Below, one piece after another: positions 37,108-60,445 of a stretch of DNA of 64,000 nucleotides. A program made the position numbers and the translations under genes. Within the stretch, counting starts at the first letter, position 1; each line of letters begins with the position of its first letter. Location: the IMG/VR virus record IMGVR_UViG_3300008255_000097, positions 123,225-187,224 of that record, one strand, 5' to 3'. The DNA is from a virus. The notes under the pieces were generated by a model. That model searched no databases. It saw only the letters and a list, made by a program, of their open reading frames with translations, and was not told the DNA's origin.

Positions 37108-37494
37108 TTAGTACGCTGGGAGATTACCAGTTATAAGTTTAATTTTGTCAAAATCTGCAGGTCCAATTGATAGCCCTGTTGTCGTAAGAATAGGTCGACG
37201 TAAAATCTCTGAATAGATAGTATCTTTAAACAGCCAAACCGGTAAACTTACCTGGTTTGCTTCCTTAAAAATGATGTCTAATTCATCAAAATTGTTTACA
37301 GCAAGAACTGATATATACGGATCTTTCATCCAATCTCTTACATCAGGAGGAAAAATATCCTTTATAGTTTTATCTGGATTCTCCCAAATCTTCTGGCGCA
37401 TAAAGTGATCTGAAATATGGGCGGCTTGAGCCATTGCTGCCCCCAGTGAAAGGTGCAGATCGCGTCTAATAATAATTACATGTCGTGTATTCAT
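37108..37494 (-). CDS. peptidyl-tRNA hydrolase, PTH2 family
   Basis: VIIIRRDLHLSLGAAMAQAAHIS matches the Pth2 core (DLxMxxGKxAAQxxHA). Confidence 0.6.
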   Translation of the reverse strand: MNTRHVIIIRRDLHLSLGAAMAQAAHISDHFMRQKIWENPDKTIKDIFPPDVRDWMKDPYISVLAVNNFDELDIIFKEANQVSLPVWLFKDTIYSEILRRPILTTTGLSIGPADFDKIKLITGNLPAY

Positions 37495-37537
37495 AATGTG
37501 TATAATATAGGAAATGAGAAATATTGCAATAAAAAAA

Positions 37538-37963
37538 TTAGCTTGTATATCCTAGCTCTTTAATGTGAGCTTCACATAGAGTTTTATACCAGCCACCCTT
37601 CTTTACTGTTTGACCATATTTACCGCAGATCTCACAAGTTTGCTCGCTGTTACGTTCAGCCGCACCTATTACATGGTAAATAATTTTATCCCAAACATCC
37701 GCATTTTCAAAATTTGGTGGAAATAATACATTGACATAAAATCGAAGACCGCCAAATTTTTCTTTACATTGCTGTGCTATAGTCTGTATACCTGTCATTT
37801 TCTCAATTGCATCCAACTCCTCACACATCTCATCGATTAATTCATACCAACCGTCATCACATTCAAACCCAAAACACATTAAACTTTGTGTCGGTGGTAA
37901 ATCTTTATTCTGAAATATAGTTGGATATTTCTCGTGTAGCTTTTTTGTATTCTCTTTATTCAT
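37538..37963 (-). CDS. hypothetical zinc-binding protein
   Basis: 141 aa; CEICGKYGQ...C. Confidence 0.4.
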   Translation of the reverse strand: MNKENTKKLHEKYPTIFQNKDLPPTQSLMCFGFECDDGWYELIDEMCEELDAIEKMTGIQTIAQQCKEKFGGLRFYVNVLFPPNFENADVWDKIIYHVIGAAERNSEQTCEICGKYGQTVKKGGWYKTLCEAHIKELGYTS

Positions 37964-37983
37964 TATTTATTTCCTATCTAAAA

Positions 37984-38355
37984 TGGTGGACCCGGGGGGA
38001 GTCGAACCCCCGTCCGTATTAGAAGCCGTCATACTTTCGTTCACATGCTTTGCAATGATTTATCGACCCATGCTCGTCTATCTAAGTTATATGCTTTTAG
38101 TAAGCTGATATAGTTCTTTCCACTATTCAAAGTCCAGGTTCATTTACGGTTCTACCTATCTCCGGTCTTTGTAATGACGCTAATAACACTTACCAAGACA
38201 ATCTCAGTGCGTTTGCGGGCTAGGTATCTCTACGCAGCCATTTTGAGTTCAGTGTCGCCACTTAATTCTTGTACCCGGATTTTTTACGAGGCCAACCAGA
38301 TATCCTCGGCATGCAAATATAATCTCTAACCTATACGTCGAAACCAAACGGGCCC
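37984..38355 (-). ncRNA. ssrA: tmRNA (ssrA)
   Basis: 3' end GGACGGGGGTTCGACTCCCCCGGGTCCACCA (T-arm plus acceptor plus CCA); 5' GGGCCCG pairs with CGGGTCC and includes G3-U70; GCATGCCGAGG...GGTTGGCCTCGTAAAAAA aligns to the PK1 region; candidate tag frame GGC GAC ACT GAA CTC AAA ATG GCT GCG TAG. Confidence 0.8.
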
Positions 38356-38562
38356 TTAAATCTCTGCAATAATGTACTCTGCCTTCTTGGCACCTTCAGG
38401 AACACCTTTCTCAAAAAGCTGTTTCCATTCTTGATCTGTGATCTTTGCTGTCGGAATACAAAATATGTTTTCAGTGTCATTCCAGTACATCTGGTGAAAT
38501 ACCTCAAACAGGACTTGATATCCCGTAACAAGTAAAATACAATTTGTTTCAAATACTTTCAT
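38356..38562 (-). CDS. hypothetical small protein
   Basis: 68-aa ORF ending at the tmRNA 5' end. Confidence 0.25.
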   Translation of the reverse strand: MKVFETNCILLVTGYQVLFEVFHQMYWNDTENIFCIPTAKITDQEWKQLFEKGVPEGAKKAEYIIAEI

Positions 38563-38606
38563 AACACATAATATATGATATTACCTACATGAAATCTACA
38601 GAAAAA

Positions 38607-39305
38607 TTAGTTAATTTCTTTTAGTAGCTCCAGTCGCCTGGCTTGAAGTAGTTTATCAACTTGACCACCGACACTATTAACACTAAAAACTTTTAATTGT
38701 GTCTTTTCTCTTTCTTTCGCATAATTCTTAAACCACAGTATGCCGCCTATTTTACATGGCATCTTAAAACAACGCTCAATCAACCGACGATATATCTCTA
38801 GCTGCAATGAAAACTTATCTATTTTATCATCACTAACTCTGTCACCTTTTGGTCTAGGTACAGAAGTCTTTATATCCCATAGCCATATGCAATCTTCATC
38901 TATTTCAATAATGTCAGCTGTACCCGCGATAAGAAACTCTGGATCGTGTAATATGACCTCAGATAATAATTGCCCTTTAAATTTTAACCGTGAAAATTGT
39001 ACAACGAGCGGGGTGAGTTTCTTATCGGTTGGGTATGCTCCTTCATTAATAAAGTCTTCTATTGATTTATGAACTGTTGTACCGAGCGGAGCTGAATCAG
39101 CCCACTGTTGTATAACAGCGTCTTTATCCATGCCATAGTATTTACTTCGTGGATTACAAATAACACGAGTTGCTATGGCTTCTGCATTAAACTCTTCGTC
39201 ACCTTTGATAAATGTAGTAACAGACGTATATTCTTGACCATCTTCGTCAAAATATTTATGCTGTTTAGGATCGAATGTTAGTGGTTTGTATGGTAATTTA
39301 AACAA
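38607..39305 (-). CDS. hypothetical protein
   Basis: 232-aa ORF. Confidence 0.4.
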   Translation of the reverse strand: MFKLPYKPLTFDPKQHKYFDEDGQEYTSVTTFIKGDEEFNAEAIATRVICNPRSKYYGMDKDAVIQQWADSAPLGTTVHKSIEDFINEGAYPTDKKLTPLVVQFSRLKFKGQLLSEVILHDPEFLIAGTADIIEIDEDCIWLWDIKTSVPRPKGDRVSDDKIDKFSLQLEIYRRLIERCFKMPCKIGGILWFKNYAKEREKTQLKVFSVNSVGGQVDKLLQARRLELLKEIN

Positions 39306-39316
39306 TTAGTTAGCTC

Positions 39317-39541
39317 CTACATTAAATCTACTATATGATTTTCGATAAAACTCTGTACATTCTCTTCCGGTATCCAACAGTTATATTCACCACAAGTTTT
39401 AAGTAAACCAGTATCATCTTTTGTTATGAGATAAAATACTTTTTCTACACCTATATATAATTTCTTAAAAACTATATCATATTCACTATATGAATTATCT
39501 CTTGTGTCCTTAGATACATCCTCAACCAGTAAAATTCTCAT
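39317..39541 (-). CDS. hypothetical protein
   Basis: 74-aa ORF. Confidence 0.3.
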   Translation of the reverse strand: MRILLVEDVSKDTRDNSYSEYDIVFKKLYIGVEKVFYLITKDDTGLLKTCGEYNCWIPEENVQSFIENHIVDLM

Positions 39542-39543
39542 AT

Positions 39544-40443
39544 CTAAGCAACCATAGGTTTCAACCTATTTTGTATTCTCTGTTTAAATAGACCAACGGT
39601 TTTTTTGCTTATTGCTGATCGAGCCTCTTTTGTATCTACAATCTCTCCCTCTGCTTCTCTCATCACATCTTCAAGCATTGCCTTGATTACGTCTGGAATA
39701 TTCTCCATGCCTATCCCTTGTGGAAGCTTGTCTAAGACGTGCTCAAGCCTCATCTCAGTAACCCATTCATCAGCGATCTCATTAGCTTCAGTTAATACTT
39801 TAAGTTTCGCTGGATCAATTATCTTTTGAACAGTCTTTCTTTCAGAGAATTTATCACTCTTATGCTTGGCACAAATACGTGATCCATTGTTACCAGTCAT
39901 CTCCATGAGTGGACGTAGCACAACACCTTCACGCAGTAGTGTCTTTCCTTCCGGTAGTTTACTTGTATCGACCTTATTACGGAAACATTGCACTGAATCA
40001 CGATCTCTTTCATGGTCAATCGCTTCTACAGTCGCCGGAATCCTTACATAGTCCACAAATTCTAGATCAAAAGCTTTAGTTACACTCTCAGCATCTAGTA
40101 CACTAAGCCAGCAATCGTCAACTTTTACATCGAAAACTACAAATTTCAATTCTTTACCATACAGGTAACTCATGCCCTGGCATTTGCCGCCATATGCTTC
40201 ACCGTATAGTGTGTAAGTTATAGTCGATGCCGGATCAAGAGCCAAATAACGAGTACGTAGATCTTCTTGATTAAACAAGCCAACGAAATTAGTATGCTTC
40301 TCGCCACCGGAAAAAAATATAATGTCATTAGGTGTTATTTTTACATGTGCACTTGTACCGTGGATTTTTTCCATTGCAAAGCACTCTTTAAACATTAAGA
40401 TATTTTGTTCCTTGTATAGGTTAGAAATGTGCGCGTACCCCAC
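39544..40443 (-). CDS. RNA ligase (Rnl2-like)
   Basis: Motif I MEKIHGTSAHVK matches the KIHGTN adenylation site of T4 Rnl2. Confidence 0.65.
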   Translation of the reverse strand: MGYAHISNLYKEQNILMFKECFAMEKIHGTSAHVKITPNDIIFFSGGEKHTNFVGLFNQEDLRTRYLALDPASTITYTLYGEAYGGKCQGMSYLYGKELKFVVFDVKVDDCWLSVLDAESVTKAFDLEFVDYVRIPATVEAIDHERDRDSVQCFRNKVDTSKLPEGKTLLREGVVLRPLMEMTGNNGSRICAKHKSDKFSERKTVQKIIDPAKLKVLTEANEIADEWVTEMRLEHVLDKLPQGIGMENIPDVIKAMLEDVMREAEGEIVDTKEARSAISKKTVGLFKQRIQNRLKPMVA

Positions 40444-40444
40444 T

Positions 40445-41077
40445 TTATACCTCCTTTAAATAACTAGTGATTTTAATACCTAACTCTGGATTGTCCTTTA
40501 AAAATCCAACTGCAACATTACAATTATTACAGAGCAATCCTCTTATTTTTCCTGTTTTATGGTCATGATCAACTGCGAGCGACTTATTATTATCTACTGG
40601 AGTCAAACCACATATCTTACATCCACCTTTTTGTTCAGTTAACAGTTCTTCATACTCAACTAATGTTATTCCATACTTTTGTACAAGACATCTATTTTTC
40701 TGAACTCTCCAACCTTTTTTATAGTATTTGTGACGCCTAGTCGGGTTAACTTTTTTTTGTAGTTCTTTTGAACATTCTTTGCAGTGGGAAGCAACTCCAC
40801 TATTACTATCTCCAGCAGTATAAAACTCTATTAATGGTCTTGTTTTTTCACATCCCGGGCAATATTTCATACCCTTCTCTCTATCCTTTCTGGCATCAAG
40901 AGTATATCGTCTTTTAGTTTTTCCTGCTTTTAAAGATTTTGCTCTCTTCCAATCTGTATAACAAACTATACATGAACACTGCCTCCCAGATCGGTTAGAA
41001 TTATCTATATAAAAATCAGTTAATGGTTTTTCTACTTTACATTTTGAACACTTTTTTGTTTTATCGGATATACACAT
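40445..41077 (-). CDS. HNH endonuclease (endonuclease VII-like)
   Basis: LAVDHDHKTGKIRGLLCNNCNVAVGFL. Confidence 0.7.
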   Translation of the reverse strand: MCISDKTKKCSKCKVEKPLTDFYIDNSNRSGRQCSCIVCYTDWKRAKSLKAGKTKRRYTLDARKDREKGMKYCPGCEKTRPLIEFYTAGDSNSGVASHCKECSKELQKKVNPTRRHKYYKKGWRVQKNRCLVQKYGITLVEYEELLTEQKGGCKICGLTPVDNNKSLAVDHDHKTGKIRGLLCNNCNVAVGFLKDNPELGIKITSYLKEV

Positions 41078-41130
41078 ATAAATACTTATGTTCTTGAGCT
41101 CTATTTATATGTGTATATCCACCCCTATCG

Positions 41131-42639
41131 TTAGTCCTTCAATGAAATCTTCTCAATCATATGCACAAGCGCCTTACAGTCCTGCTCCAGCATCTTCATG
41201 ATATCAAAAATCTTATCACTAAATCCGGCAATACAATAGACATCATTCTCTGGGAACATCATGTCACCTTGACCACTAAGATCAAAGCTATAGATCTTCG
41301 GAGTTACATTGAACTTCTTCTTGTATTCCGTAAACTGCTTGGTAGGTGCACCACCAGATATCCACCCTTGCATATCCGAAAAGATAACAATACGGTTGTA
41401 CGCCTTATTTATAGTCTTGAAGATCAAAGGGAAATCTGTTCCATGTCCTACCTGCATCTTTCCACCCGTCACCGATGAAGATGATCCCCAGCCGCTGCTA
41501 TTGTTATGAGTCATAAACTCATCCGCAAGAGCCAGTGCCGGGATTGACGGATTATAATCGATGTACGCCGCACTATTACCGAAGATCATGAAGTCTCCGT
41601 TTTGTGCCTTTGCCATCAGTGCACCAAATATAGACCCGATACCGCGATATGATGTTGGACCATTCCCCATCGATCCAGAGTAATCAACTACAACGAGAGT
41701 ATCACCGTCAAGGACAGGAATATTTGCACAAGAAATATCAAGTGCCTTAGTAAGAGCAACAGTCGCCTTACGAACTCGTGCGGAATCACCCTTGAGGTTA
41801 TTAATTGCAGTTAGAAAGCGGTATGGAAATACCAACGACTTCTTAATCATATGCTCATTAACGAGAACCTCAAGCAACGCGTTGAACGTATCTGCATCAG
41901 CCTGCTCGATAATGTTGTTGATGTTTCGAAGCGCCGCGAAGTAACCGAGCTTCTTCTCTGCAAGCAAAGTCTTCCACGCATCTGCCTTCGCATCTGCCTT
42001 CTCCTCTTCAGTGTTAGAATTCTGACCAGCCGCGGTAAGCTTTGCCTCCCACGTCTCTGTGGAGCGAAGATTATCATTAATAAGACCCTTAAGAGCCTCT
42101 GCATTCTTTTCTGTCGGTGCTGGGCGTACGAGATTAACAACATCTACAAGGGAGACGTTCTTGCCGTCACCACGATACTTTGCTAGCTGGTAACTGTCGA
42201 ACTTTCCAAACGCCTTTGCAAATCCCTTCTTGAGAGAGTTTGGAATTGGCTTGCCATAAGTCCTAAGATAGTAAGCGAGCGTCTCAGTCATATCATCCGG
42301 GCGATAAACAACCTTTGCAAAAAAGTCCTTGGTCCAGTCAGCACCCTTTACGGTATTTGCAACTTCAGCAGCTACAACATGCGTAATTGAACGCATACCG
42401 AATTCATTACGAGCAAAGATTGCAGACTTCGCAAGAAACTCCTTATCAGCAAGCCCTCTGACGAGTTCTTGTGTGCGAGTAACTTGTTCACTTGCCGACC
42501 GATAATATTGATCCTTGATCAATGATGTTAGAAGCAACGAGATAAACTCGAGCTTATCTGTCTGCTTGTATGCTGCTCCACCTGCGCGGTTTATAGTCTT
42601 AGTTGTCTTCTGTGGGATAGCTGAATTGAACCTTGCCAT
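41131..42639 (-). CDS. Ro60-like TROVE domain protein with C-terminal vWA domain
   Basis: N-terminal NRAGGAAYKQTDKLEFISLL resembles TROVE; MIDAS motif LVVVDYSGSMG; 502 aa. Confidence 0.7.
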   Translation of the reverse strand: MARFNSAIPQKTTKTINRAGGAAYKQTDKLEFISLLLTSLIKDQYYRSASEQVTRTQELVRGLADKEFLAKSAIFARNEFGMRSITHVVAAEVANTVKGADWTKDFFAKVVYRPDDMTETLAYYLRTYGKPIPNSLKKGFAKAFGKFDSYQLAKYRGDGKNVSLVDVVNLVRPAPTEKNAEALKGLINDNLRSTETWEAKLTAAGQNSNTEEEKADAKADAWKTLLAEKKLGYFAALRNINNIIEQADADTFNALLEVLVNEHMIKKSLVFPYRFLTAINNLKGDSARVRKATVALTKALDISCANIPVLDGDTLVVVDYSGSMGNGPTSYRGIGSIFGALMAKAQNGDFMIFGNSAAYIDYNPSIPALALADEFMTHNNSSGWGSSSSVTGGKMQVGHGTDFPLIFKTINKAYNRIVIFSDMQGWISGGAPTKQFTEYKKKFNVTPKIYSFDLSGQGDMMFPENDVYCIAGFSDKIFDIMKMLEQDCKALVHMIEKISLKD

Positions 42640-42769
42640 TTTATTCTCCTTAGTTTTTCAGTGAGAAACTCACTGCACTGTTATTACTAAATCCTCCATG
42701 TACCTTACATAGAGGGATTGCACATACCTCTATAATAGAGGCAAGATTGAAAAATGCAACAGGGGGAAC

Positions 42770-44189: not shown

Positions 44190-44264
44190 TGGTACTCATA
44201 TCCAGATTCGAACTGGAAATAAGAGTTTAGGAAACTCCTGTGTTATCCCTTACACTATACGAGC
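44190..44264 (-). tRNA. tRNA-Arg(CCT)
   Basis: Anticodon loop TTCCTAA, T-arm TCCAGTTCGAATCTGGA, CCA encoded. Confidence 0.7.
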
Positions 44265-44268
44265 AATA

Positions 44269-44345
44269 TGGCGTCCTTGGAGGGACTCTAACCCCCACTA
44301 TCGACGTTAGAACCGTCGTGCACTATACAATTATACTACAAGGAC
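44269..44345 (-). tRNA. tRNA-Arg(TCT) second copy
   Basis: Anticodon arm CGACG GTTCTAA CGTCG; unusual T-loop TTAGAGT; CCA encoded. Confidence 0.6.
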
Positions 44346-45042
44346 ATAAATTAATACACAGAACATTATCTGTAATAGAGTTAATTTCGTAAAAATACAT
44401 ATTATGTGGTCTTTCATCTCTATACCAGGGATCCAAACCGTTTTCAGTACTTTCTGGATCATAGCACATCTTTAACATAAAGATAAAATTATCAAACGTA
44501 AAAATAGTATATACTTCAAAATATCCAGTATCCACAGTTGATTCTTTTAATAAACTAATATCAATCTTATTAAGAATGTCAACTGCTACTTCTTCAAGAC
44601 AGAAATCGATAGTTTTTGAGCAGTTCGATGTAATTCGTTCCTGTCTATGTTCAAATCTATATGAGAGTCGATCTAGGAAATACTTAATGGATTTAAAAAA
44701 CTCAACATCAATCATATCCTTAATCATTGCGTCATTTTGTGTCGTAGAAACTTCTATCACATTTATACCATCTTTAGTTATCTCATATCCATACCGAGTT
44801 TCTTCATGAATAGCAAGTAATCGATCAGCGCATCTCTCATCTAAAAGCTCCTGTGCATATTGCTTTACATAATTAGATCTAAACGTACCGGAATGTTTAT
44901 TAGTATGTTGTTCAGCTCTTTCACATAGTCGCGCATGCTTAGTTAGATATTGAAAATGCTTATATGGATATTGAATTACCTTATTCATGCCACATATTAT
45001 ATAGGAAACATGAATAAGATAAAGCAAAATTTTGGTTAACAT
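44323..45042 (-). CDS. hypothetical protein
   Basis: 239-aa ORF whose 3' end overlaps the tRNA by about 20 nt. Confidence 0.4.
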   Translation of the reverse strand: MLTKILLYLIHVSYIICGMNKVIQYPYKHFQYLTKHARLCERAEQHTNKHSGTFRSNYVKQYAQELLDERCADRLLAIHEETRYGYEITKDGINVIEVSTTQNDAMIKDMIDVEFFKSIKYFLDRLSYRFEHRQERITSNCSKTIDFCLEEVAVDILNKIDISLLKESTVDTGYFEVYTIFTFDNFIFMLKMCYDPESTENGLDPWYRDERPHNMYFYEINSITDNVLCINLCPCSIIV

Positions 45043-45140
45043 GCTATTTCACGCAGAGCGTGAAACGATGCTCCTTCCACTCTTACATACTTCTAATGGT
45101 AGATGAGCCATATATCAGCCACTAATAACTGTGACAAGAT

Positions 45141-45215
45141 TGGTCCCGTAGAGTGGAGTCGAACCACTTATACACTGCGTATGAAGCAGCTGCCTAGCCG
45201 GTTAGCTTCTACGGG
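45141..45215 (-). tRNA. tRNA-Met/Ile(CAT)
   Basis: Anticodon loop TTCATAC, T-arm AGTGGTTCGACTCCACT, CCA encoded. Confidence 0.7.
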
Positions 45216-45423
45216 GTCATGAGATGCACAGTTTTCTCATCCTTAATATCTAGTTGTGAGCTAAACTTTGGGGAGTAGTGAGGATATAAATTCAGGAACA
45301 ACCCTCTGTTTATAGCCCACACGACACGACCACTTTACTTCGCTGCATTGAATAGTTTGTTATAACATTTTGCTACTATTCACCACAGTTTATGTAGCAT
45401 CTCATCTCTTAGTCGCTTCGAGT

Positions 45424-45497
45424 TGGAACGGGTAACGGGGATCGAACCCGTATCATTAGCATGGCAAGCTAACACTCTACCATTGAGATATACCCGC
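45424..45497 (-). tRNA. tRNA-Gly(GCC)
   Basis: Anticodon loop TTGCCAT, T-arm ACGGGTTCGATCCCCGT, CCA encoded. Confidence 0.75.
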
Positions 45498-45502
45498 AAA
45501 AT

Positions 45503-45576
45503 TGGTTGGCTCGGAAAGATTCGAACTTCCGCAAACTGAGTCAGAGTCAGTTGTGCTACCATTACACCACAAGCCA
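45503..45576 (-). tRNA. tRNA-Gln(CTG)
   Basis: Anticodon loop CTCTGAC, U1-A72, CCA encoded. Confidence 0.7.
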
Positions 45577-45577
45577 T

Positions 45578-46042
45578 TTAAAAAATTGTTGAATGTAGCC
45601 CGATATCATTGTGTCGTCTAGTGAGTGTATCCAATAACTTCTCTACTGTCGGTCCTTCATGATAACCTGTGCTACTGTTAAACTCAAATCCCCAGCCTTT
45701 TACTAAAGAATCAAACGCTTTATCAATTCTCATAAATCGTTCAACATCAATATCATTTAATAAAACACTACCGTTGCGCCTTATAAGAATCTTATCACTC
45801 CAGTTAGGTAATATTATAGAAGCTATTACCCCATTAGTATCCTTCTTTTGTGCTCGTATTCCTTTTGGTGTGTATAATATTTCTAGTATGTTAGAACCTG
45901 CATCAGCTCTGGTTTCCTTCTCTCTAGTTATTTTACCAGGAGTTGCTACTCCCCAAATACGTTCAATACGATCTGCCATGAAATCAAACAACGTGAATAA
46001 ATCACTTTGATTAGTCTCAAAATATAGATTAAACGAGTTCAT
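45578..46042 (-). CDS. hypothetical protein
   Basis: 154-aa ORF. Confidence 0.4.
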   Translation of the reverse strand: MNSFNLYFETNQSDLFTLFDFMADRIERIWGVATPGKITREKETRADAGSNILEILYTPKGIRAQKKDTNGVIASIILPNWSDKILIRRNGSVLLNDIDVERFMRIDKAFDSLVKGWGFEFNSSTGYHEGPTVEKLLDTLTRRHNDIGLHSTIF

Positions 46043-46095
46043 ATAGATATTTATACACTTATGATATATTCCTAAGGAGACCCTGAATAAAAAAT

Positions 46096-46842
46096 ATGCT
46101 GTCTCCTATAAATATTTATATGAAAACAATTTTGGATTCTATAGTTAACATTGATCAGTTTCATTCTGCAAAATATGATGACATTGTTGAAGTCGTCTGT
46201 GCACAATGCTCGCAAACATATAAAAGAAAAAAACGAGATATTAAGGCATATCAACGAAGAAATTTATCTGCAAGTGTATGCAAAAAATGTCAAAATGCTA
46301 ATCAAAAAACCGGCTCAAAAGTACAATGCCCAGAATGTGGAAAGTCTAGCTACAAACCGGTAGAGAAGATATCAAAAGGTTACATATTTTGTAATGCTAC
46401 TTGCTCTACCACATACAATAATAAACATAAAGATTACGGATATAGACGCTCAAAACTTGAAAAATGGATAGAAGATCGGTTAATACAGGACTTTCCAATA
46501 CTTGATATTCATTTTAACTCTAAACAAGCAATCGAAAGTGAACTTGATATTTACATTCCTGCTCTCCGTTTAGGTATTGAATTGAATGGTATCTTTCATT
46601 ATGAGCCTATTTACTCACCGAATCAATTTAAACGAATTCAAAATAATGATCAACAAAAAATTATTGAATGCTATAAACGTGGAATTGAGCTCTGTGTTAT
46701 TGATACTTCAACACAAAAATACTTCTCTGATAAAACATCAGAAAAATATTATGCCATAGTCACTAATATAATTAATCGCTGTTTGAAAAGATTGGAGCAG
46801 ACAGAGGGAATCGAACCCCCGACAGGCTTATCACCTGCTTAA
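46096..46842 (+). CDS. Vsr/DUF559-like PD-(D/E)xK endonuclease with N-terminal zinc fingers (homing-endonuclease-like)
   Basis: C-terminal LDIYIPALRLGIELNGIFHY...GIELCVID fits the DUF559 core (D...IExDG.H); CxxC pairs at the N-terminus; lone plus-strand gene in the tRNA array. Confidence 0.5.
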   Translation: MLSPINIYMKTILDSIVNIDQFHSAKYDDIVEVVCAQCSQTYKRKKRDIKAYQRRNLSASVCKKCQNANQKTGSKVQCPECGKSSYKPVEKISKGYIFCNATCSTTYNNKHKDYGYRRSKLEKWIEDRLIQDFPILDIHFNSKQAIESELDIYIPALRLGIELNGIFHYEPIYSPNQFKRIQNNDQQKIIECYKRGIELCVIDTSTQKYFSDKTSEKYYAIVTNIINRCLKRLEQTEGIEPPTGLSPA

Positions 46843-46885
46843 CCGGATTTGCAGTCCGGCGCCTTAGCCACTCGGCCATATCTGC
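46793..46885 (-). tRNA. class II-type tRNA with GCA anticodon (possible tRNA-Cys on a long-variable-arm scaffold)
   Basis: Anticodon arm CCGGA CTGCAAA TCCGG, 22-nt variable arm, T-arm GGGGGTTCGATTCCCTC, discriminator U73, CCA encoded. Confidence 0.5.
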
Positions 46886-46930
46886 TATTTATTTTTATCA
46901 TCGCCTAACCACTCGGCCACGGGGTCATGT

Positions 46931-47004
46931 TGGAGCCACCTACCAGTATCGAACTGGTATTTGCTGCATACCAAGCAGCTGTTCTACCTTTGAACTAAAG
47001 TGGC
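46931..47004 (-). tRNA. tRNA-Thr(GGT)
   Basis: Anticodon loop TTGGTAT, T-arm ACCAGTTCGATACTGGT, CCA encoded. Confidence 0.75.
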
Positions 47005-47008
47005 ATTA

Positions 47009-47094
47009 TGGTACGGGAGGAGGGACTTGAACCCTCATGCACCATTACTCTAATTATAACCGCCCTGCTTATAAGACAGGTGAGATACTCCCGT
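47009..47094 (-). tRNA. atypical tRNA-like gene (86 nt; anticodon arm CCTGT CTTATAA GCAGG gives TAT; D-arm not resolved)
   Basis: Clear T-arm GAGGGTTCAAGTCCCTC, acceptor ACGGGAG/CTCCCGT and CCA; internal fold is ambiguous. Confidence 0.35.
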
Positions 47095-47110
47095 ATACTA
47101 TTAATATTTA

Positions 47111-47785
47111 TTATCCTATAGTAACTTGATTATTAAAAGCATCTGCTGTAACAGGAAAAAGTTCTTTCATAATTTTAAACATTGCAATAGCATATTGTCT
47201 AATTTCCCATTGGGCATGCTCATCCATACGCAACCGTAAAAAATGCATTAGATTATGGATATCACAATTCACATACACTTCTGTATACAAATTAACAGGT
47301 AGAACCATTCTTGCCATTTCTCTTGCAACATTTTTAGATAACAAATCTTGGTAAAATTTGTATGACTCTCTACAGTGAGTCACCAGATGATCATTCAACA
47401 AATATTGTGTCAATTCTGAACTCTCAACACCGCCTTGCTTATTCTTTGTATCCTGCACTCTCCATCCATCAGGAATATAAAATTCATCTTTCATTTCTGT
47501 GTATCGTGCAGATTGCTCATTAAGACGGAAAGTACGATGGCGAACAAATTGTCTCATAACAAAGATTGGCATCTTTATATTGTATGTTATATTAACCGCT
47601 TCAAATGGGGAAGTATGTCTGTTCATATACAGATATTTCAACAGTTTCATATCCTGCTCTTCACCTTTTGATGGTGCATCATAGCAAATTCGTGCTGTCT
47701 CAACAATTCGTTGATCATTACCTAAATGGTCTATGTATCGCACAAACCCTTTATCCAAAACATCAATCGTAAACCCTTTATCCAT
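47111..47785 (-). CDS. thyX: flavin-dependent thymidylate synthase ThyX
   Basis: ThyX signature RHRTFRLNEQSARY (RHR...S.RY). Confidence 0.8.
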   Translation of the reverse strand: MDKGFTIDVLDKGFVRYIDHLGNDQRIVETARICYDAPSKGEEQDMKLLKYLYMNRHTSPFEAVNITYNIKMPIFVMRQFVRHRTFRLNEQSARYTEMKDEFYIPDGWRVQDTKNKQGGVESSELTQYLLNDHLVTHCRESYKFYQDLLSKNVAREMARMVLPVNLYTEVYVNCDIHNLMHFLRLRMDEHAQWEIRQYAIAMFKIMKELFPVTADAFNNQVTIG

Positions 47786-47803
47786 ATTGTTAAACTTCCT
47801 TAC

Positions 47804-47877
47804 TGGCTCCTAGACCTGGGCTCGAACCAGGAAAAACAGATTAACAGTCTGCTGTGATACCATTTCACCATCTAGGA
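47804..47877 (-). tRNA. tRNA-Asn(GTT)
   Basis: Anticodon loop CTGTTAA, T-arm CCTGGTTCGAGCCCAGG, CCA encoded. Confidence 0.7.
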
Positions 47878-47945
47878 TTCATCTTCACAATTATCAAATG
47901 GGGCCGCTTTTAAGGATTTTCACCTAAGGTCTATCGGCCGGTGAC

Positions 47946-48266
47946 CTATATCTTATCGACACCTGTTTTTTGCAGAAACTCAACAAATTTCTTGCAATCT
48001 TCTCTTCTAAGCTCCCAGCAATCCCAATGACCATATCTACATTGATAGCCGAATATGTATTTAATAGCTACCCAAATACGTTTAAATATATTTCTCCATT
48101 GAACAAGCTGAACTTCGAGATACAGACCTGCATCATCAAAATCTACTATTCCATCCTCATCTGCAAAATACACAAACCGTATAGTGTGATCCGAGCTTGC
48201 ACAAATACAATCAAAATACTCAGTCTTTAGCTGGCTCTGGTAACTGTTCTTCTTTGACTTTTTCAT
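47946..48266 (-). CDS. hypothetical protein
   Basis: 106-aa ORF. Confidence 0.35.
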   Translation of the reverse strand: MKKSKKNSYQSQLKTEYFDCICASSDHTIRFVYFADEDGIVDFDDAGLYLEVQLVQWRNIFKRIWVAIKYIFGYQCRYGHWDCWELRREDCKKFVEFLQKTGVDKI

Positions 48267-48414
48267 ACGGTGGTGGTCCTATTTTAACGAGATGATTTAT
48301 ATCTATACAAACTTTCTGTTGTTGTCTAATAGACTGAGCTTGTGCCATCATTCTTCTTAATTCTTCTAAAGGTATCTGTTGCATGTTATGTCCATAGAGC
48401 ACGACGAATATCAA
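48220..48414 (-). CDS. hypothetical small protein
   Basis: 64-aa ORF bridging two larger ORFs. Confidence 0.25.
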   Translation of the reverse strand: MIFVVLYGHNMQQIPLEELRRMMAQAQSIRQQQKVCIDINHLVKIGPPPYEKVKEEQLPEPAKD

Positions 48415-49012
48415 TAAGTCGTTTTAGATATTCTTGTTCTTCGTCATGTAATTTTTCTTCAAGTATATGAAGATCATCAAACATTTTCTTTACTTCAGGT
48501 GTGTCATTTGAGTTTAAACGTTCAAGCCAATTGTCTCCGCATCCTTCAAATTTCGCATCATGCCATTCTGTGAGCTTATCACTGATTTCCTGCTCACGGG
48601 TTGGATAATTTTTCCACCAATCATAAATTGCGTGAATCTCCTTAGCTACGTGTGCATGTTCAGGGTCGCTATCCCAAGCAATAACCTCGAAACACTTTTC
48701 CTTTTCTACAAAATCAACTAAAAGATTCATCATACCATAAAGAATGAGTTCAACCTTATCACACCACTGTCCTTTATTAAGACCGGTTGGTATTAAGTCA
48801 TACCGACGAAGGAGAAAATTACGAATCCAGTAATAGATATCTTTTGGTTTTGACCAACAGTAGTATGTAATCTCAAACCACATATCTTCAAGGATTGTAA
48901 CAACTCTTGACGGTTTCTTCTTTGTAATAGATTCAATGCTCTTTGTTAATTGTTTGAAATCTTTCATATATACCTCACTAAATGGAGCCACCAGACGGTC
49001 TCGAACCGACAA
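48386..49012 (-). CDS. hypothetical protein
   Basis: 208-aa ORF. Confidence 0.4.
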   Translation of the reverse strand: MSVRDRLVAPFSEVYMKDFKQLTKSIESITKKKPSRVVTILEDMWFEITYYCWSKPKDIYYWIRNFLLRRYDLIPTGLNKGQWCDKVELILYGMMNLLVDFVEKEKCFEVIAWDSDPEHAHVAKEIHAIYDWWKNYPTREQEISDKLTEWHDAKFEGCGDNWLERLNSNDTPEVKKMFDDLHILEEKLHDEEQEYLKRLIDIRRALWT

Positions 49013-49058
49013 CCTGCTGATTACAAATCAGCTGCTCTACCAACTGAGCTATAGTGGC
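48983..49058 (-). tRNA. tRNA-Thr(TGT)
   Basis: Anticodon loop TTTGTAA; T-loop TTCGAGA; CCA encoded. Confidence 0.7.
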
Positions 49059-49062
49059 ATAT

Positions 49063-49137
49063 TGGAGCCGCCAGCCCCACTCGAAGAGGCTTTTCCTGGG
49101 TACAGGCCAGGCGCATCACCGTATATGCTTTGGCGGC
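49063..49137 (-). tRNA. tRNA-like gene with non-canonical anticodon loop (CCTGTAC, C33) and A8; possible pseudogene
   Basis: Good acceptor (GCCGCCA), T-arm and D-arm, but U33 and U8 are missing. Confidence 0.4.
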
Positions 49138-49186
49138 AAGATGAATAAAGAAAATTTAGTAACAGTGTTTTTTGAAGATAAAGTTC

Positions 49187-49214
49187 GAAGTAACCGCTTC
49201 TATCACTTTTATTC
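49187..49214 (+). repeat. tRNA-trailer hairpin repeat copy a (GAAGTAAC...ATCACT...TATT)
   Basis: Member of an 8-copy family, each directly adjacent to the CCA end of a minus-strand tRNA; extended upstream similarity AGTGTTTTTTGAA..AAAGTTC is shared with copy f. Confidence 0.6.
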
Positions 49215-49289
49215 TGGAGCCACTGCAGGGATTCAAACCCTATTATCCGATTTACGAGACCGGCGCATCATCACTTATGCTTCAATGGC
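49215..49289 (-). tRNA. tRNA-Thr(CGT)
   Basis: Anticodon loop CTCGTAA, CCA encoded. Confidence 0.65.
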
Positions 49290-49362
49290 AAAAAAATGAA
49301 CCTCTATAAACTGCCTGTTTAATTACTCTCTTTAAACTACCTATTATTTTTATCTTGTCTTT

Positions 49363-49384
49363 TGGTGACTTAGTCACCTTTTTA
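49363..49384 (+). terminator. rho-independent terminator-like hairpin (plus-strand sense)
   Basis: GGTGAC TTA GTCACC followed by TTTTTATT. Confidence 0.4.
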
Positions 49385-49409
49385 TTAGATGTCTTTTTAG
49401 CTCTAGCAG

Positions 49410-49434
49410 TTTTTGTTTTTGTTTTTGTTTTTGT
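49410..49434. repeat. (TTTTTG)x4 tandem repeat
   Basis: Direct hexamer repeat just downstream of the hairpin. Confidence 0.6.
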
Positions 49435-49453
49435 TTTTGCTTCTTTCATTTGA

Positions 49454-49526
49454 TGGAGCGGGTAAGGAGAATTGAACTCCTGTATTCAGATTGGAAGTCT
49501 GACGCACAACCATTATGCCATACCCG
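49454..49526 (-). tRNA. tRNA-Gly(TCC)
   Basis: Anticodon loop CTTCCAA, T-arm AGGAGTTCAATTCTCCT, CCA encoded. Confidence 0.75.
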
Positions 49527-49538
49527 CGTTACCAATAT

Positions 49539-50120
49539 TTATCTCAATCGTTGTATAATACTTTGTCGAACTCTACCCGGCATTCCATTGAGTTGTTTTA
49601 TTATTTTTAACACCTCCGGACTATCAATCAAATCCATTGCTTTCATTGAATCACAATAATCACCGACGTTCTTCGAATAATGTCGCATCAACTCTGCTGC
49701 TTTAAAAAACTCATCATCAATATTACAAGTATCTGAGACAATCTTCTCTACCTCTTTACCTGGACGGAAAAACTGTACTTCTGCGAATGCTGCTTTTTGT
49801 AGACTTTCATATTTTTCAGGGTTATTTTTCGCTAAATCAGAAATTCGAATTTTTTCTCTTAGCATTTCCGTGAACGGTTTATTTATATCCTTCTCAGGTT
49901 TTGTATCGATATCGACAACATTAAAGGTACATATAGCAAAGAGATTTTTATCTCTATGCTCTACTAAAAGATAACTATTTTCACAGTTGAATAGATATTC
50001 ATTATCTAATAGTTTCTCCACATTGGCCTGTGACGATTGAACAGCCTTCAATATTTGTTTTACAAACCAATCAATATACGTGGTTGGAATATTATCTATT
50101 TTTAAATCTTTGATTTCCAT
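49539..50120 (-). CDS. hypothetical protein
   Basis: 193-aa ORF between tRNA genes. Confidence 0.4.
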   Translation of the reverse strand: MEIKDLKIDNIPTTYIDWFVKQILKAVQSSQANVEKLLDNEYLFNCENSYLLVEHRDKNLFAICTFNVVDIDTKPEKDINKPFTEMLREKIRISDLAKNNPEKYESLQKAAFAEVQFFRPGKEVEKIVSDTCNIDDEFFKAAELMRHYSKNVGDYCDSMKAMDLIDSPEVLKIIKQLNGMPGRVRQSIIQRLR

Positions 50121-50188
50121 ATTATCTCCTGTCCTTAATTATACTCTATTGCAAATATAAATCAACACATGCCTTAATATTTATTTTT

Positions 50189-50262
50189 TGGTTGGATCGG
50201 GAAGATTTGAACTTCCACCAAGAGAGTCAAAGTCTCTTGTGCTGCCATTACACTACGACCCA
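50189..50262 (-). tRNA. tRNA-Gln(TTG)
   Basis: Anticodon loop CTTTGAC, U1-A72, CCA encoded. Confidence 0.7.
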
Positions 50263-50271
50263 TTTTATAGA

Positions 50272-50348
50272 TGGTGTACCTGGAGGGACTCGAACCCCCA
50301 TTAGTCTTGGTCCGTAGCCAAGTGCCATATCCATTAGGCGACAGGTAC
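50272..50348 (-). tRNA. tRNA-Arg(ACG)
   Basis: Anticodon loop CTACGGA, CCA encoded. Confidence 0.75.
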
Positions 50349-50388
50349 ATATTGAGAGGAAAACAATGAGAGGGTATTTCAAATGTCC

Positions 50389-50424
50389 GAAGTAACTCTA
50401 CATCTCACTTCTCAAATAAATTAT
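50389..50424 (+). repeat. tRNA-trailer hairpin repeat copy b
   Basis: GAAGTAACTCTACATCTCACTTC...AATTATT immediately before the CCA of tRNA-Ile. Confidence 0.6.
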
Positions 50425-50500
50425 TGGTAGGCGACCAAGGATTTGAACCTTGTCGACGAGATCTTATCAGGATCTCCGGCATAACCAATGCCCGCCGCCT
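50425..50500 (-). tRNA. tRNA-Ile(GAT)
   Basis: Anticodon loop CTGATAA, T-arm CAAGGTTCAAATCCTTG, CCA encoded. Confidence 0.75.
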
Positions 50501-50505
50501 ATTAA

Positions 50506-50582
50506 TGGTAGCGGAAGCAGGACTCGAACCTACGTCTTCGGCTTATGAGACCGAGCTGGAACCACCTCCAGTCTATTCCGCA
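50506..50582 (-). tRNA. tRNA-Met(CAT), initiator-like (U1·U72 mismatch)
   Basis: Anticodon loop CTCATAA, U8 A9, unpaired 1:72, CCA encoded. Confidence 0.55.
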
Positions 50583-50583
50583 A

Positions 50584-51042
50584 CTATATTCTATAAACTT
50601 CTGCAAATCTACAATTTTGTTTCTTTAGCTTAGGAGGATCAACACGTAAATTTATACTCTTTTGCACAGTAAATCCGTCTTCTTGAACACAATCAACGAC
50701 AGGTATTAAATATCCTTTTTGTGTTTCATCACACCAAATCGCAATTAAATCAATTTCTTTTATGCTATACGTAAATACAGCACTTTTACTTGTAGTGCCG
50801 ACTGTTCTTCTTGTATAAGCACGTACTGCGCCATTCTTTATAAGTCCGTTTTTTATCTGTACTCTTTCAAATCCATTACCGCGGTTGATTACTATATCAT
50901 AGAGTTGATTATCTCCAAAAGGCTGCAAAACAATCCAATTTTTATTTATACATTTCGCAATAATATTTATTTCTGCTTTATCCCCTATATTCTTAGTATT
51001 CATATTCAAAAATGGCTCAAGGGAGTTTAGGACCTTACCCAA
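50584..51042 (-). CDS. YraN/Hjc-like PD-(D/E)xK nuclease (paralog 1)
   Basis: GDKAEINIIAKCI...YDIVINRGNGFERVQIKNG matches the YraN pattern G..E...L...G...DLI...vEVK. Confidence 0.5.
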   Translation of the reverse strand: MGKVLNSLEPFLNMNTKNIGDKAEINIIAKCINKNWIVLQPFGDNQLYDIVINRGNGFERVQIKNGLIKNGAVRAYTRRTVGTTSKSAVFTYSIKEIDLIAIWCDETQKGYLIPVVDCVQEDGFTVQKSINLRVDPPKLKKQNCRFAEVYRI

Positions 51043-51105
51043 GAACTGTCCAAGGCGTTAGCTCTCGCCAACCTCCACCATCTAGTTTACTAACTAGCAA
51101 AAATA

Positions 51106-51525
51106 CTAAATTTCAAAATCTTTTGCCCAGAGAATACTTGCTTTTTGGTTATTTTTTGGTGCTTGTACTCTTAAACACACATCAACTGTCCCTCTATACT
51201 CCTCTATACCTATTCTATATAACTTATTATTGTCTTGACAAAAAATAATAAAACTATCAATTTCTTTATCTGTATACTGTTGAAGTATTGTTGTATTATA
51301 TTTCCGTTTCTGAACCCGACATCTTACAATTCCATTTATTTCTCTACCAGTTTTTACTTGAACTCTTTCAAATCCATTACCGAAATCTACTAAAATATCA
51401 TATTTTTGTTCATCCAAATACGGTTTAGCAACATCATACCCTTTTTCGAGTAAATACACTGCTACTTTATATTCATTAACCATTCCACGGCGTTGATTAT
51501 CATGTCCCTTTTCAATCTCTGTCAT
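51106..51525 (-). CDS. YraN/Hjc-like PD-(D/E)xK nuclease (paralog 2)
   Basis: GMVNEYKVAVYLLEKGYDVA...YDILVDFGNGFERVQVKTG. Confidence 0.5.
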   Translation of the reverse strand: MTEIEKGHDNQRRGMVNEYKVAVYLLEKGYDVAKPYLDEQKYDILVDFGNGFERVQVKTGREINGIVRCRVQKRKYNTTILQQYTDKEIDSFIIFCQDNNKLYRIGIEEYRGTVDVCLRVQAPKNNQKASILWAKDFEI

Positions 51526-51585
51526 TTTATCTCCTATAAATATTTATAAGAGATCATCTGCTATTATAGCAGATATTCAAATTAC

Positions 51586-51661
51586 TGGTCGGAAATGTCG
51601 GATTTGAACCGCTCCCAGACGCCCCAAACGTCTTGTGCTACCAAGTTACACCACATTTCCG
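51586..51661 (-). tRNA. tRNA-Pro(TGG)
   Basis: Anticodon loop TTTGGGG, perfect acceptor CGGAAAT/ATTTCCG, CCA encoded. Confidence 0.65.
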
Positions 51662-51692
51662 AATATTGGAAGAAAAGCTAACAGAGGTTTTA

Positions 51693-51760
51693 ATTTCATA
51701 CTAGGAGTTGAACCTAGAATATGAACCTTTTAAGGGTTCTGCATTTTCCAATTTTGCTAT
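51693..51760 (-). tRNA. tRNA-like fragment/pseudogene with Leu(TAA)-type anticodon arm
   Basis: Clear T-arm CTAGGTTCAACTCCTAG and anticodon arm GAACC CTTAAAA GGTTC, but no 5' acceptor partner and no CCA. Confidence 0.3.
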
Positions 51761-51791
51761 ACGATGTATCTCTATTAATCACTATCCAAAC

Positions 51792-51866
51792 TGGTACACG
51801 CAGAAGGAATCGGACCTCCATCTCCAGTGTGTAAAACTGGGGTACTAACCATTGTACGATGCGTGC
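51792..51866 (-). tRNA. tRNA-Val(TAC)
   Basis: Anticodon loop TTTACAC, CCA encoded. Confidence 0.7.
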
Positions 51867-51912
51867 ATTAAAAGAGAAAATCGACATTGAGTGTGTTTTA
51901 ATTCCCATAATT

Positions 51913-51942
51913 GAAGTAACTCAACATCTCACTACTTTTATT
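51913..51942 (+). repeat. tRNA-trailer hairpin repeat copy c
   Basis: GAAGTAACTCAACATCTCACTACTTTTATT before the CCA of tRNA-Ala. Confidence 0.6.
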
Positions 51943-52017
51943 GGTGGACCCGACAGGAATTGAACCTGCATCTCCTCGGTGCAAGCGAGGTGCTAAACCA
52001 GTGTCAGCTACGAGCCC
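51942..52017 (-). tRNA. tRNA-Ala(TGC)
   Basis: Anticodon loop CTTGCAC, G3-U70 pair, T-arm GCAGGTTCAATTCCTGT, CCA encoded. Confidence 0.8.
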
Positions 52018-52282
52018 AGAATATTTAAGGATAAAGTTGGCAAAAGTGTTCAGTGTTTTACAACGAACTGTACGTTGTGCGGCTCGTTTTAAGTGTCTCC
52101 AGCTTCCACTTGATACATAGTATCAATTCATGTATTTTTCGAAGTATCTTTTCCCTCAATGCCTTAAACATAACATCATTATATATGCATAAAATATTTA
52201 TGCAAGATCTTTAAAAAATTAATAGAGAAAGTCAAGAAAAAGTGTTTTTCGCGTGCTAACATTACACTAACCCTCGATTAAT

Positions 52283-52310
52283 TGGTTGAGGGTGAAGGAA
52301 TTGAACCTCC
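52283..52310 (-). tRNA. tRNA 3' fragment (T-arm plus acceptor strand plus CCA only)
   Basis: TGG T TGAGGGT GAAGGAATTGAACCTCC, with no anticodon or D arms. Confidence 0.3.
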
Positions 52311-52328
52311 TCTTCGTCATTATGTATT

Positions 52329-52360
52329 GAAGTAACTCTTTCTTTCACTACTATTAAAAC
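52329..52360 (+). repeat. tRNA-trailer hairpin repeat copy d
   Basis: GAAGTAACTCTTTCTTTCACTACTATTAAAAC. Confidence 0.6.
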
Positions 52361-52459
52361 TGGTCGGGAAGGTGGGATTCGAACCCACGAAGCACACACG
52401 CTTAGTGCACTTGTCCGGTTCCAAGCCGGATGAGGAAAGCCAGACTCCTCCACTTCCCG
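52361..52459 (-). tRNA. class II-type tRNA with TGG anticodon (Ser-like scaffold)
   Basis: Anticodon arm TCCGG CTTGGAA CCGGA (E. coli tRNA-Ser(UGA) has CUUGAAA), about 25-nt variable arm, 5' CGGGAAG, T-arm GTGGGTTCGAATCCCAC, CCA encoded. Confidence 0.45.
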
Positions 52460-52792
52460 TAAATTGGCAGTGTGATTTGGTTATCATCATTGGATTTCAC
52501 GATGTTCTGTCTTTGATCTTCGTGTGAGACATAGGAGTCGAACCTAAGCACTCGGGCCCGTGAAAGGATGAGTGGCAACCAGCTTCTCCGATCAAATACA
52601 TCTATCAACTACTTCACCAAATACATCTACCGCATACCGGTAGCGTTCTTTTAACCAGATGGATTTCAATATTTTTTCCTACTTGATATTGCTTTCATTA
52701 TTCTAGAACTAATTACTCACCTCTCAACGTCTATCATCTGTTTTATCTTGCCATAAAGACAAGAGTTATGATTTGAACTATCACACGTAAAA

Positions 52793-52867
52793 TGGTACCC
52801 TCGAGGAGAATTGAACTCCCTTTTACAGATTGAAAGTCTATCGAATTAACCAATATTCGACGAGGGC
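52793..52867 (-). tRNA. tRNA-Glu(TTC)
   Basis: Anticodon loop CTTTCAA, CCA encoded. Confidence 0.75.
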
Positions 52868-52935
52868 AAAAATTATTAGAGAAAAGTTGGCGTGAGTGTA
52901 TACTGTGCTAGCCGCTACACTACATGCGGAATTAT

Positions 52936-52981
52936 TGGCCCGCATGCCGGGACTCGAACCCGGCCCAGTCAATTAACAGTT
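52936..52981 (-). tRNA. tRNA 3' fragment (anticodon arm with CTGTTAA loop, T-arm, acceptor strand, CCA)
   Basis: The 5' half is replaced by hairpin repeat copy e. Confidence 0.3.
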
Positions 52982-53002
52982 GAAGTAACTCGTACCATCA
53001 CT
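52982..53002 (+). repeat. tRNA-trailer hairpin repeat copy e
   Basis: GAAGTAACTCGTACCATCACTACTAATAAAT. Confidence 0.6.
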
Positions 53003-53124
53003 ACTAATAAATTGGTGGGGACGAAAGGATTTTCACCTTTAATAACCATATAGGCACCTGGTGTACTGTCAGGCTTGCTCATTAAGTTTCGATACTTAAT
53101 TGCGATGTCCGCTGCCGCGTTCCC
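53003..53124 (-). ncRNA. tRNA-like/structured RNA of unclear type (about 120 nt)
   Basis: CCA, GGGGACG acceptor-like strand and AAAGG ATTTTCA CCTTT T-arm-like hairpin, then an ATTAAG-TTTCGATA-CTTAAT hairpin; no canonical cloverleaf. Confidence 0.25.
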
Positions 53125-53227
53125 CTTTGATTGTTACACGAAGTGGATTCTCACCACACTTGTACCCGAAGCACCGTGCATCAATTATAACTGATTCTAC
53201 ACTATTCGTGAAATTTTTTCATGAAAA

Positions 53228-53303
53228 TGGTAGGTGTGGCGGGACTCGAACCCGCGACAGTCCGGTTAAAAGCCGGAGGCTCTATCAACTGAGCTACGCA
53301 TCC
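53228..53303 (-). tRNA. tRNA-Lys(TTT) second copy with two acceptor-stem mismatches (possible pseudogene)
   Basis: Anticodon loop CTTTTAA, D-arm TAGCTCAGTTGATAGAGC, T-arm GCGGGTTCGAGTCCCGC, A·C mismatches at 3:70 and 6:67. Confidence 0.5.
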
Positions 53304-53713
53304 AAACATCTATCAAAATCTAAATAATCCTCATACCAATTTGTTGTTTTTGTAATTCTTTCATTCTTTTCATATCGGATAACAATACACTTCTTCTTAC
53401 TAAAATCTTTCCAACTCAAATATATAACTCTTTCAATCTCTGGTATATAATATGCAAATACATCTAGATCTCTTTCAGTGTATGTAAATCTATAATTTGG
53501 ACCGCTCTTACTAAGCACACAATCTATTGAACCTCCTGTCTTATTATAACATTGATGGTTCTTCACTTGTATACGAATAGGTATACTACCAACTAAAGCA
53601 ATTAAATCAACTTTTGATAAATCACCTAGCTCTGTAAAAACAGCATATCCTTTCTTTAAAAGATCCAATGCAACAGCACACTCACCTATATTTCCTTTAA
53701 TTTTTGAATGCAT
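53294..53713 (-). CDS. YraN/Hjc-like PD-(D/E)xK nuclease (paralog 3)
   Basis: GNIGECAVALDLLKKGYAVFTELGDLSKVDLIALVGSIPIRIQVKN. Confidence 0.55.
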   Translation of the reverse strand: MHSKIKGNIGECAVALDLLKKGYAVFTELGDLSKVDLIALVGSIPIRIQVKNHQCYNKTGGSIDCVLSKSGPNYRFTYTERDLDVFAYYIPEIERVIYLSWKDFSKKKCIVIRYEKNERITKTTNWYEDYLDFDRCLDA

Positions 53714-53765
53714 ATTTAACCTCTTATCTGTATAGTATATTGCTATAATACACTCATATTAGAAA

Positions 53766-53842
53766 TGGCGGAGACGACGAGAATTGAACTCGCGCTTCTA
53801 GTTAGACAGACTAGTGTGCAGAAACCACTACACTACGCCTCC
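53766..53842 (-). tRNA. tRNA-Asp(GTC)
   Basis: Anticodon loop CTGTCTA, CCA encoded. Confidence 0.7.
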
Positions 53843-53854
53843 AGTAAAATCAAT

Positions 53855-53941
53855 TGGTGCACTTGGGGAGACTCGAACTCCCATTGACCGAAGTCATCTG
53901 GTCCTCAACCAGACGCGTTTGCCAAATTACGCCACAAGTGC
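53855..53941 (-). tRNA. tRNA-Leu(GAG)
   Basis: Class II: anticodon loop TTGAGGA, variable arm TGAC..GTCA, exact 7-bp acceptor, CCA encoded. Confidence 0.75.
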
Positions 53942-53988
53942 AATATATGAAGAAAATCGACTAAGAGTGTTTTTTGAATTAAAAGTTC

Positions 53989-54021
53989 GAAGTAACTCTT
54001 TATCTCACTATCATAAAAATT
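53989..54021 (+). repeat. tRNA-trailer hairpin repeat copy f (not followed by a tRNA)
   Basis: GAAGTAACTCTTTATCTCACTATCATAAAAATT with the same upstream extension as copy a. Confidence 0.55.
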
Positions 54022-54085
54022 GTTAGTAAAGAAAATCTAGAAGAGTGTAATCATCACCAAGGTCGGCCGAAGCTGTGGGGGTGTT

Positions 54086-54103
54086 GATAGGAGTCGAACC
54101 TAT
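54086..54103 (-). tRNA. isolated T-arm fragment
   Basis: GATAGGAGTCGAACCTAT between repeat copies f and g. Confidence 0.25.
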
Positions 54104-54110
54104 TATAACC

Positions 54111-54140
54111 GAAGTAACTCATTCTATCACTATTACTAAA
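54111..54140 (+). repeat. tRNA-trailer hairpin repeat copy g
   Basis: GAAGTAACTCATTCTATCACTATTACTAAA before the CCA of tRNA-Phe. Confidence 0.6.
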
Positions 54141-54215
54141 TGGTGGAAGCCCCGGGGATTGAACCCGATTGTCTGGATTTTCAGTCCAGCGCATTGACCA
54201 CAATTGCTTGACTTC
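54141..54215 (-). tRNA. tRNA-Phe(GAA)
   Basis: Anticodon loop CTGAAAA, CCA encoded. Confidence 0.75.
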
Positions 54216-54302
54216 CAAAATGGTGGACGTGAGTTTTACAAGGATGCGCCCTCCCCTTGCGTTAATTAACTTAGCATTTCTATTGATCAGATAAAAACAC
54301 TA

Positions 54303-54377
54303 TGGTGCCCCCACGGGTAATCGAAACCCGATTTCCAGATTGAGAGTCTGATGTCCTGACCGTTAGACGACAGGGCA
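54303..54377 (-). tRNA. tRNA-Glu(CTC)
   Basis: Anticodon loop CTCTCAA, D-arm GTCTAACGGTCAGGAC, T-arm CGGGTTTCGATTACCCG; acceptor stem pairs at only 5 of 7 positions. Confidence 0.5.
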
Positions 54378-54473
54378 TGAAAATTTAAGAGAAAATTTAA
54401 GAGAAAATCTGAATGAGAGCTTTTTATTGACGGGTGTGTTTACCAGTTTCACCACAAGGCAGCTATGAACCAC

Positions 54474-54512
54474 CAAGGTAGGACTCGAACCTACAATATC
54501 CTGTTTGTTTGA
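54474..54512 (-). tRNA. tRNA 3' fragment (T-arm plus acceptor strand) fused to repeat copy h
   Basis: CACCAAG GTAGGACTCGAACCTAC, with no CCA, followed by the repeat hairpin. Confidence 0.25.
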
Positions 54513-54538: not shown

Positions 54539-54539
54539 T

Positions 54540-54627: not shown

Positions 54628-54638
54628 ATTCGCGAAAA

Positions 54639-60444: not shown

Positions 60445-60445
60445 T

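Follow-up and report, generated by a model that had tools for sequence, protein, structure and literature searches.

Genes for tRNA repair and ribosome rescue in two operon-like blocks of an uncultured phage: a putative layered system for maintaining translation

Do the RNA ligases, tRNA-processing enzymes and ribosome-rescue genes carried along part of an uncultured phage genome of about 236 kb belong to one system that keeps translation going when host defences cut tRNAs? We analyzed a 64-kb stretch of this genome, hereafter the window, in which all features given below as start..end lie on the minus strand. Each component listed in the original prediction coincides with an ORF or RNA gene at the position assigned to it, and all of them passed profile, motif or structure tests. 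The description of a dense neighbourhood was however too strong. A span of about 25 kb holds for the Rnl1-family ligase, the CCA-adding enzyme and the Rnl2-family ligase only, whereas the whole set extends from 14.8 to 58.5 kb (44 kb) and consists of two operon-like blocks and an isolated phosphoesterase. Block A (22.1-14.5 kb) contains the kinase, the CCA enzyme, a nucleotidyltransferase (NTase) and Rnl1, and block B (42.8-36.8 kb) contains Ro, Endonuclease VII (Endo VII), Rnl2, a tmRNA and Pth2. Within both blocks genes overlap or are separated by intergenic gaps of at most about 50 nt. The metallophosphoesterase stands apart from both, at 58 kb and 36 kb from the kinase, within a tRNA array rich in homing-type nucleases.

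Block A includes a candidate P-loop polynucleotide 5'-kinase resembling N4BP2 and the CthPnkp kinase (21557..22084; AAA_33, 4e-8), which consists of a kinase domain only. It matches PHROG 2071 (4e-25) and PHROG 505, 'polynucleotide kinase' (4e-8), and its homologs carry the JGI label 'NEDD4-binding protein 2'. Residues G15, K16 and S17, D33, the DNTN sequence at 72-75 and H140 are invariant. The AF2 model (pLDDT 94.5) has a polynucleotide-kinase fold whose six best PDB matches are all the kinase domain of Clostridium thermocellum Pnkp (CthPnkp; TM about 0.7). In CthPnkp itself, the fusion partner of this domain is a calcineurin-type phosphoesterase that acts as a 2',3'-cyclic phosphodiesterase (PMC2190708). 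The isolated gene at 58 kb encodes a calcineurin-type dinuclear metallophosphoesterase (57934..58542; PHROG 547, 2.7e-48; PDB 1xm7, 6e-11; no Pfam match) in which all five active-site motifs (DxH, GD, GNH, H and GHxH) are invariant. We regard it as a candidate RNA 3'-phosphate or 2',3'-cyclic-phosphate end-healing enzyme; for the aq_1665-like phosphoesterase family we found no citable demonstration of an RNA substrate. Three phages from unrelated groups, Pseudomonas phage NoPa, E. coli phage nomine and Vibrio phage 5P1c, carry homologs of the kinase, the phosphoesterase and Rnl1 next to one another as a compact cassette. Each part of the cassette is homologous to a window gene, and the phosphoesterases of the three groups match that of the window at 1e-17 to 1e-26. 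The proposal that kinase and phosphoesterase jointly stand in for T4 Pnk has thus gained support on two independent counts, the nearness of the kinase fold to CthPnkp and the recurrence of the cassette across these phages.

Between the kinase and the CCA enzyme lies a 114-aa ORF (21250..21594) with no Pfam or PHROG match; a contig designated P0149 has a 120-aa ORF at the same place. The next gene encodes a class II CCA-adding tRNA nucleotidyltransferase with a C-terminal HD phosphohydrolase domain (19802..21271; PolyA_pol head, 2.4e-32), in which Pfam profiles define the head, RNA-binding and HD domains. The protein scores up to 2.9e-61 against NCBIfam CCA models, yet under their curated cut-offs. 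Among solved structures it is nearest to bona fide CCA-adding enzymes (6ibp and 1miv, 1.6e-35), with which its GGxVRD, DxD, RRD and EDxxR motifs align, and the HD motif LLHDVGK is visible. Since the 3'-CCA is encoded in 32 of the 33 Rfam-defined tRNA genes, the enzyme would be dispensable for maturation, which favours a role in repair. Between the CCA enzyme and Rnl1 we found a PolX-fold NTase with a tRNA-nucleotidyltransferase-type C-terminal tail (17434..18567). Its core is nearest to DNA gap-filling family-X polymerases, and the protein matches PHROG 24943, labelled 'DNA polymerase'; it is a candidate RNA 3'-end nucleotide restorer. A small DprA/SLOG-like protein (17014..17421) separates it from Rnl1 and matches PHROG 289 (1.5e-8) and, below cut-off, PF02481 (6e-5). 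The P0149 contig has a counterpart at the same position, also with a faint PF02481 match. The whole order of kinase, small ORF, CCA enzyme, NTase, SLOG-like protein and Rnl1 is repeated on that contig, where the NTase is 46% identical.

The Rnl1-family (T4 gp63-like) ligase (14772..15887; PF09511, 1.2e-10; PHROG 562, 9e-42; TIGR02308, 7e-14) has motifs I (KIDGS), III (FEW), IV (EGV) and V (KLK), all of which align to the T4 Rnl1 structure 2c5u. The Rnl2-family ligase of block B (39544..40443; PF09414, 1.2e-11; PHROG 548, 2.4e-32; TIGR02307, 9e-16) is full length, and its match to the T4 Rnl2 structure 2hvq (3e-8) includes the C-terminal domain. Its motifs I, III, IIIa, IV and V (EKIHGT, GE, F(D/E), EG and KxK) are invariant relative to a Tequatrovirus Rnl2. 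Motifs I, III, IV and V are therefore intact in both proteins, and the objection that they might lack the full nucleotidyltransferase motif set fails. Next to Rnl2 is a stand-alone nuclease of the Endo VII/HNH type with N-terminal Cys-rich repeats (40445..41077; PF02945, 1.9e-22). Its nucleotide identity to the related locus L005 is 93.7%, against 80-83% for its neighbours, and in three other relatives (L003, L014 and L015) no Endo VII and Rnl2 pair is present between Ro and the PD-(D/E)XK gene. Endo VII is probably a mobile homing endonuclease travelling with Rnl2, and the pair, confined to the clade of the window and L005, has the appearance of a recently acquired mobile insertion.

Block B also encodes a Ro60/TROVE RNA-binding protein with a vWA domain (41131..42639; PF05731, 4.5e-18; PHROG 850, 3e-37) that has the DxSxS MIDAS motif (VVVDYSGSM in the sequence). 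It has more than 3400 homologs, on which PF25045 is found. Upstream of Ro is a structured leader (42640..42769) with two or three hairpins and a promoter-like pair. This leader is 89% identical to that of L005, compared with 63% at third-codon positions of Ro, and has a fold z-score of -3.8; the promoter-like pair recurs in L013-L015, as does a hairpin ahead of the RBS. The leader was rejected as a YrlA-type Y RNA after a Y RNA search, which found none near Ro. One phage Ro60 is known to form complexes with host PNPase and Y-like RNAs (PMC12135203). A PD-(D/E)XK (Cas4/RecB-like) exonuclease (38607..39305; PF12705, 6.6e-5; PHROG 298 'exonuclease', 8.6e-21), which follows Ro in L003, L005, L014 and L015, probably serves DNA metabolism and not RNA repair. 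The tmRNA (37984..38355) is full length, scores 108.8 bits with Rfam RF00023 (gathering score 47) and encodes the tag GDTELKMAA according to ARAGORN. Related loci have it as well (L005, GDTQLKMAA; L003, ANDSMLMAA; L015, Rfam 88 bits); no SmpB was found within the window. After the tmRNA come a 141-aa Cys-rich protein (37538..37963) with no Pfam, PHROG or NCBIfam match, found at the same relative position in L005 (60% identity) and L015 (39%), and a Pth2-type peptidyl-tRNA hydrolase (37108..37494; PF01981, 6e-12, positions 3-114 of 115; NCBIfam NF003314, 2.4e-13). The core of the block (tRNA array, Ro, PD-(D/E)XK, tmRNA and 141-aa gene) persists in relatives whose Ro is as little as 58% identical.

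The same promoter-like motif, TTGCAT-N16-TATWAT, stands at the head of both blocks. One copy (TTGCAT-16 nt-TATAAT, 22107..22134) precedes the kinase gene by 23 nt, at the proposed head of block A, and another (TTGCAT-16-TATTAT, 42732-42759, minus strand) is in the Ro leader and heads block B. With a spacing of 15-17 nt the motif has four matches in the window, all on the coding strand, where 0.26 were expected, and none of 100 shuffles reached four. It may function as a promoter. The main tRNA array (44190..62363) comprises 36 ARAGORN genes and two detected by Rfam only, and three further tRNAs are found at 12709-13102, giving about 41 in total, of which ARAGORN called 39 on the coding strand. 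Every one of the 20 amino acids has a tRNA, which makes the set, predicted to be near-complete, a complete one. None of the tRNA genes contains an intron, hence the ligases are not required for splicing.

Taken from homology and gene context, these genes suggest a layered system that would keep translation going when host anticodon or tail nucleases cut tRNAs, a reading that we consider reasonably probable and that agrees with the predicted toolkit for tRNA healing and ribosome rescue. In a first layer the phage tRNAs, with their encoded CCA, would replace those destroyed. In a second, block A and the distant phosphoesterase would repair: the Pnkp-type kinase would phosphorylate 5'-OH ends, the metallophosphoesterase, possibly together with the HD domain of the CCA enzyme, would remove 2',3'-cyclic or 3'-phosphates, the CCA enzyme would rebuild trimmed 3' tails, and the NTase, with its presumed tRNA-binding tail, may restore nucleotides lost at the break. 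Rnl1 would then seal breaks in single-stranded loops and Rnl2, from block B, nicks in duplex RNA. In a third layer, of rescue and clean-up, Pth2 would release the peptides of peptidyl-tRNAs that had broken or dropped off, the tmRNA, presumably with host SmpB, would free stalled ribosomes, and Ro60 would bind damaged or misfolded RNAs and perhaps pass them to host PNPase. Counting against such a system are its non-contiguous components, the insertion-like Rnl2 and Endo VII pair, the PolX-like NTase found with no RNA-repair neighbours in contexts L009 and L010, the tail-fibre role of T4 Rnl1, the lack of SmpB in the window and of a Y RNA near Ro, and an aq_1665-like phosphoesterase family for which we found no citable RNA substrate.

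Several of these observations would also fit a hyperplastic accessory region with no coordinated anti-defence, where tRNAs mainly compensate for codon usage, genes were gained piecemeal via homing-type endonucleases and Rnl1 is chiefly structural. T4 Rnl1 (gp63) doubles as a tail-fibre attachment factor, after which PHROG 562 is named. Interspersed among the repair genes are many of unrelated function (DNA nucleases, NAD salvage, ThyX, a radical SAM enzyme, a MoxR/vWA trio and homing-type endonucleases). The array and its surroundings contain eight or more stand-alone nucleases (PDDEXK_5, HNH and Endo VII), of which three PDDEXK_5 and also HNH nucleases lie between the tRNAs. The Endo VII and Rnl2 pair is shared only with the closest relative, at unusually high Endo VII identity, and neither of the two records from huge phages that match Ro and Rnl2 best is syntenic with the window. 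However, the order of block A is kept at 46% identity, both blocks share the promoter-like motif, all catalytic motifs are intact, and kinase, phosphoesterase and Rnl1 families that repeatedly lie side by side in unrelated phages are hard to account for unless they share a pathway, so that we judge this account unlikely. Less plausible still is an offensive or regulatory role of the Ro, tmRNA and Pth2 block, with the ligases acting on other RNAs. Ro would then enlist host PNPase against host RNAs such as crRNA precursors, which would be degraded or remodelled, as might be expected from the RYPER-like complexes of Thermus-phage Ro60 with host PNPase, for which a counter-CRISPR role was suggested (PMC12135203). 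The tmRNA would sense or manipulate ribosome stalling and tag host-derived peptides, and phages do use tmRNAs for sensing the host physiological state (Al-Shayeb et al., PMC7162821). L003 and L015 keep the Ro-tmRNA linkage without any ligase, but we found no Y-like RNA as a PNPase tether and no sign in the window of RNA-degrading effectors partnering Ro, and rescue is the classical function of both Pth2 and tmRNA. Finally, the substrates of the kinase, phosphoesterase and NTase might be DNA or nucleotides, for instance ends to be processed for the phage DNA ligase (2324-3568), which is likewise very unlikely: the polymerase-like NTase core, the activity of the CthPnkp kinase on DNA too (PDB 4mde, a product complex with DNA), a faint phosphoesterase match to PdeM, a ligase-associated DNA-damage-response endonuclease, and a DNA ligase about 2 kb from the NoPa cassette agree with such substrates, but the kinase shares its operon-like block with the CCA enzyme and Rnl1 while the DNA ligase is 18 kb off, other phages combine the cassette with an RNA ligase, and the NTase has a tRNA-nucleotidyltransferase tail domain.

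The layered set is, as predicted, larger than the T4 Pnk/Rnl pair, yet a kit of this sort is already known from jumbo and huge phages. Their tRNAs, Rnl1 and Rnl2, TROVE, PNK, calcineurin, HD and HAD phosphatases, CCA enzyme and PTH2 have been described in jumbo phages (Iyer 2021; PMC7824862); for huge phages, genes for tmRNA and CCA addition are on record (Al-Shayeb 2020; PMC7162821). What is new here is the PolX-fold nucleotidyltransferase with a tRNA-nucleotidyltransferase tail, which was absent from the original prediction.

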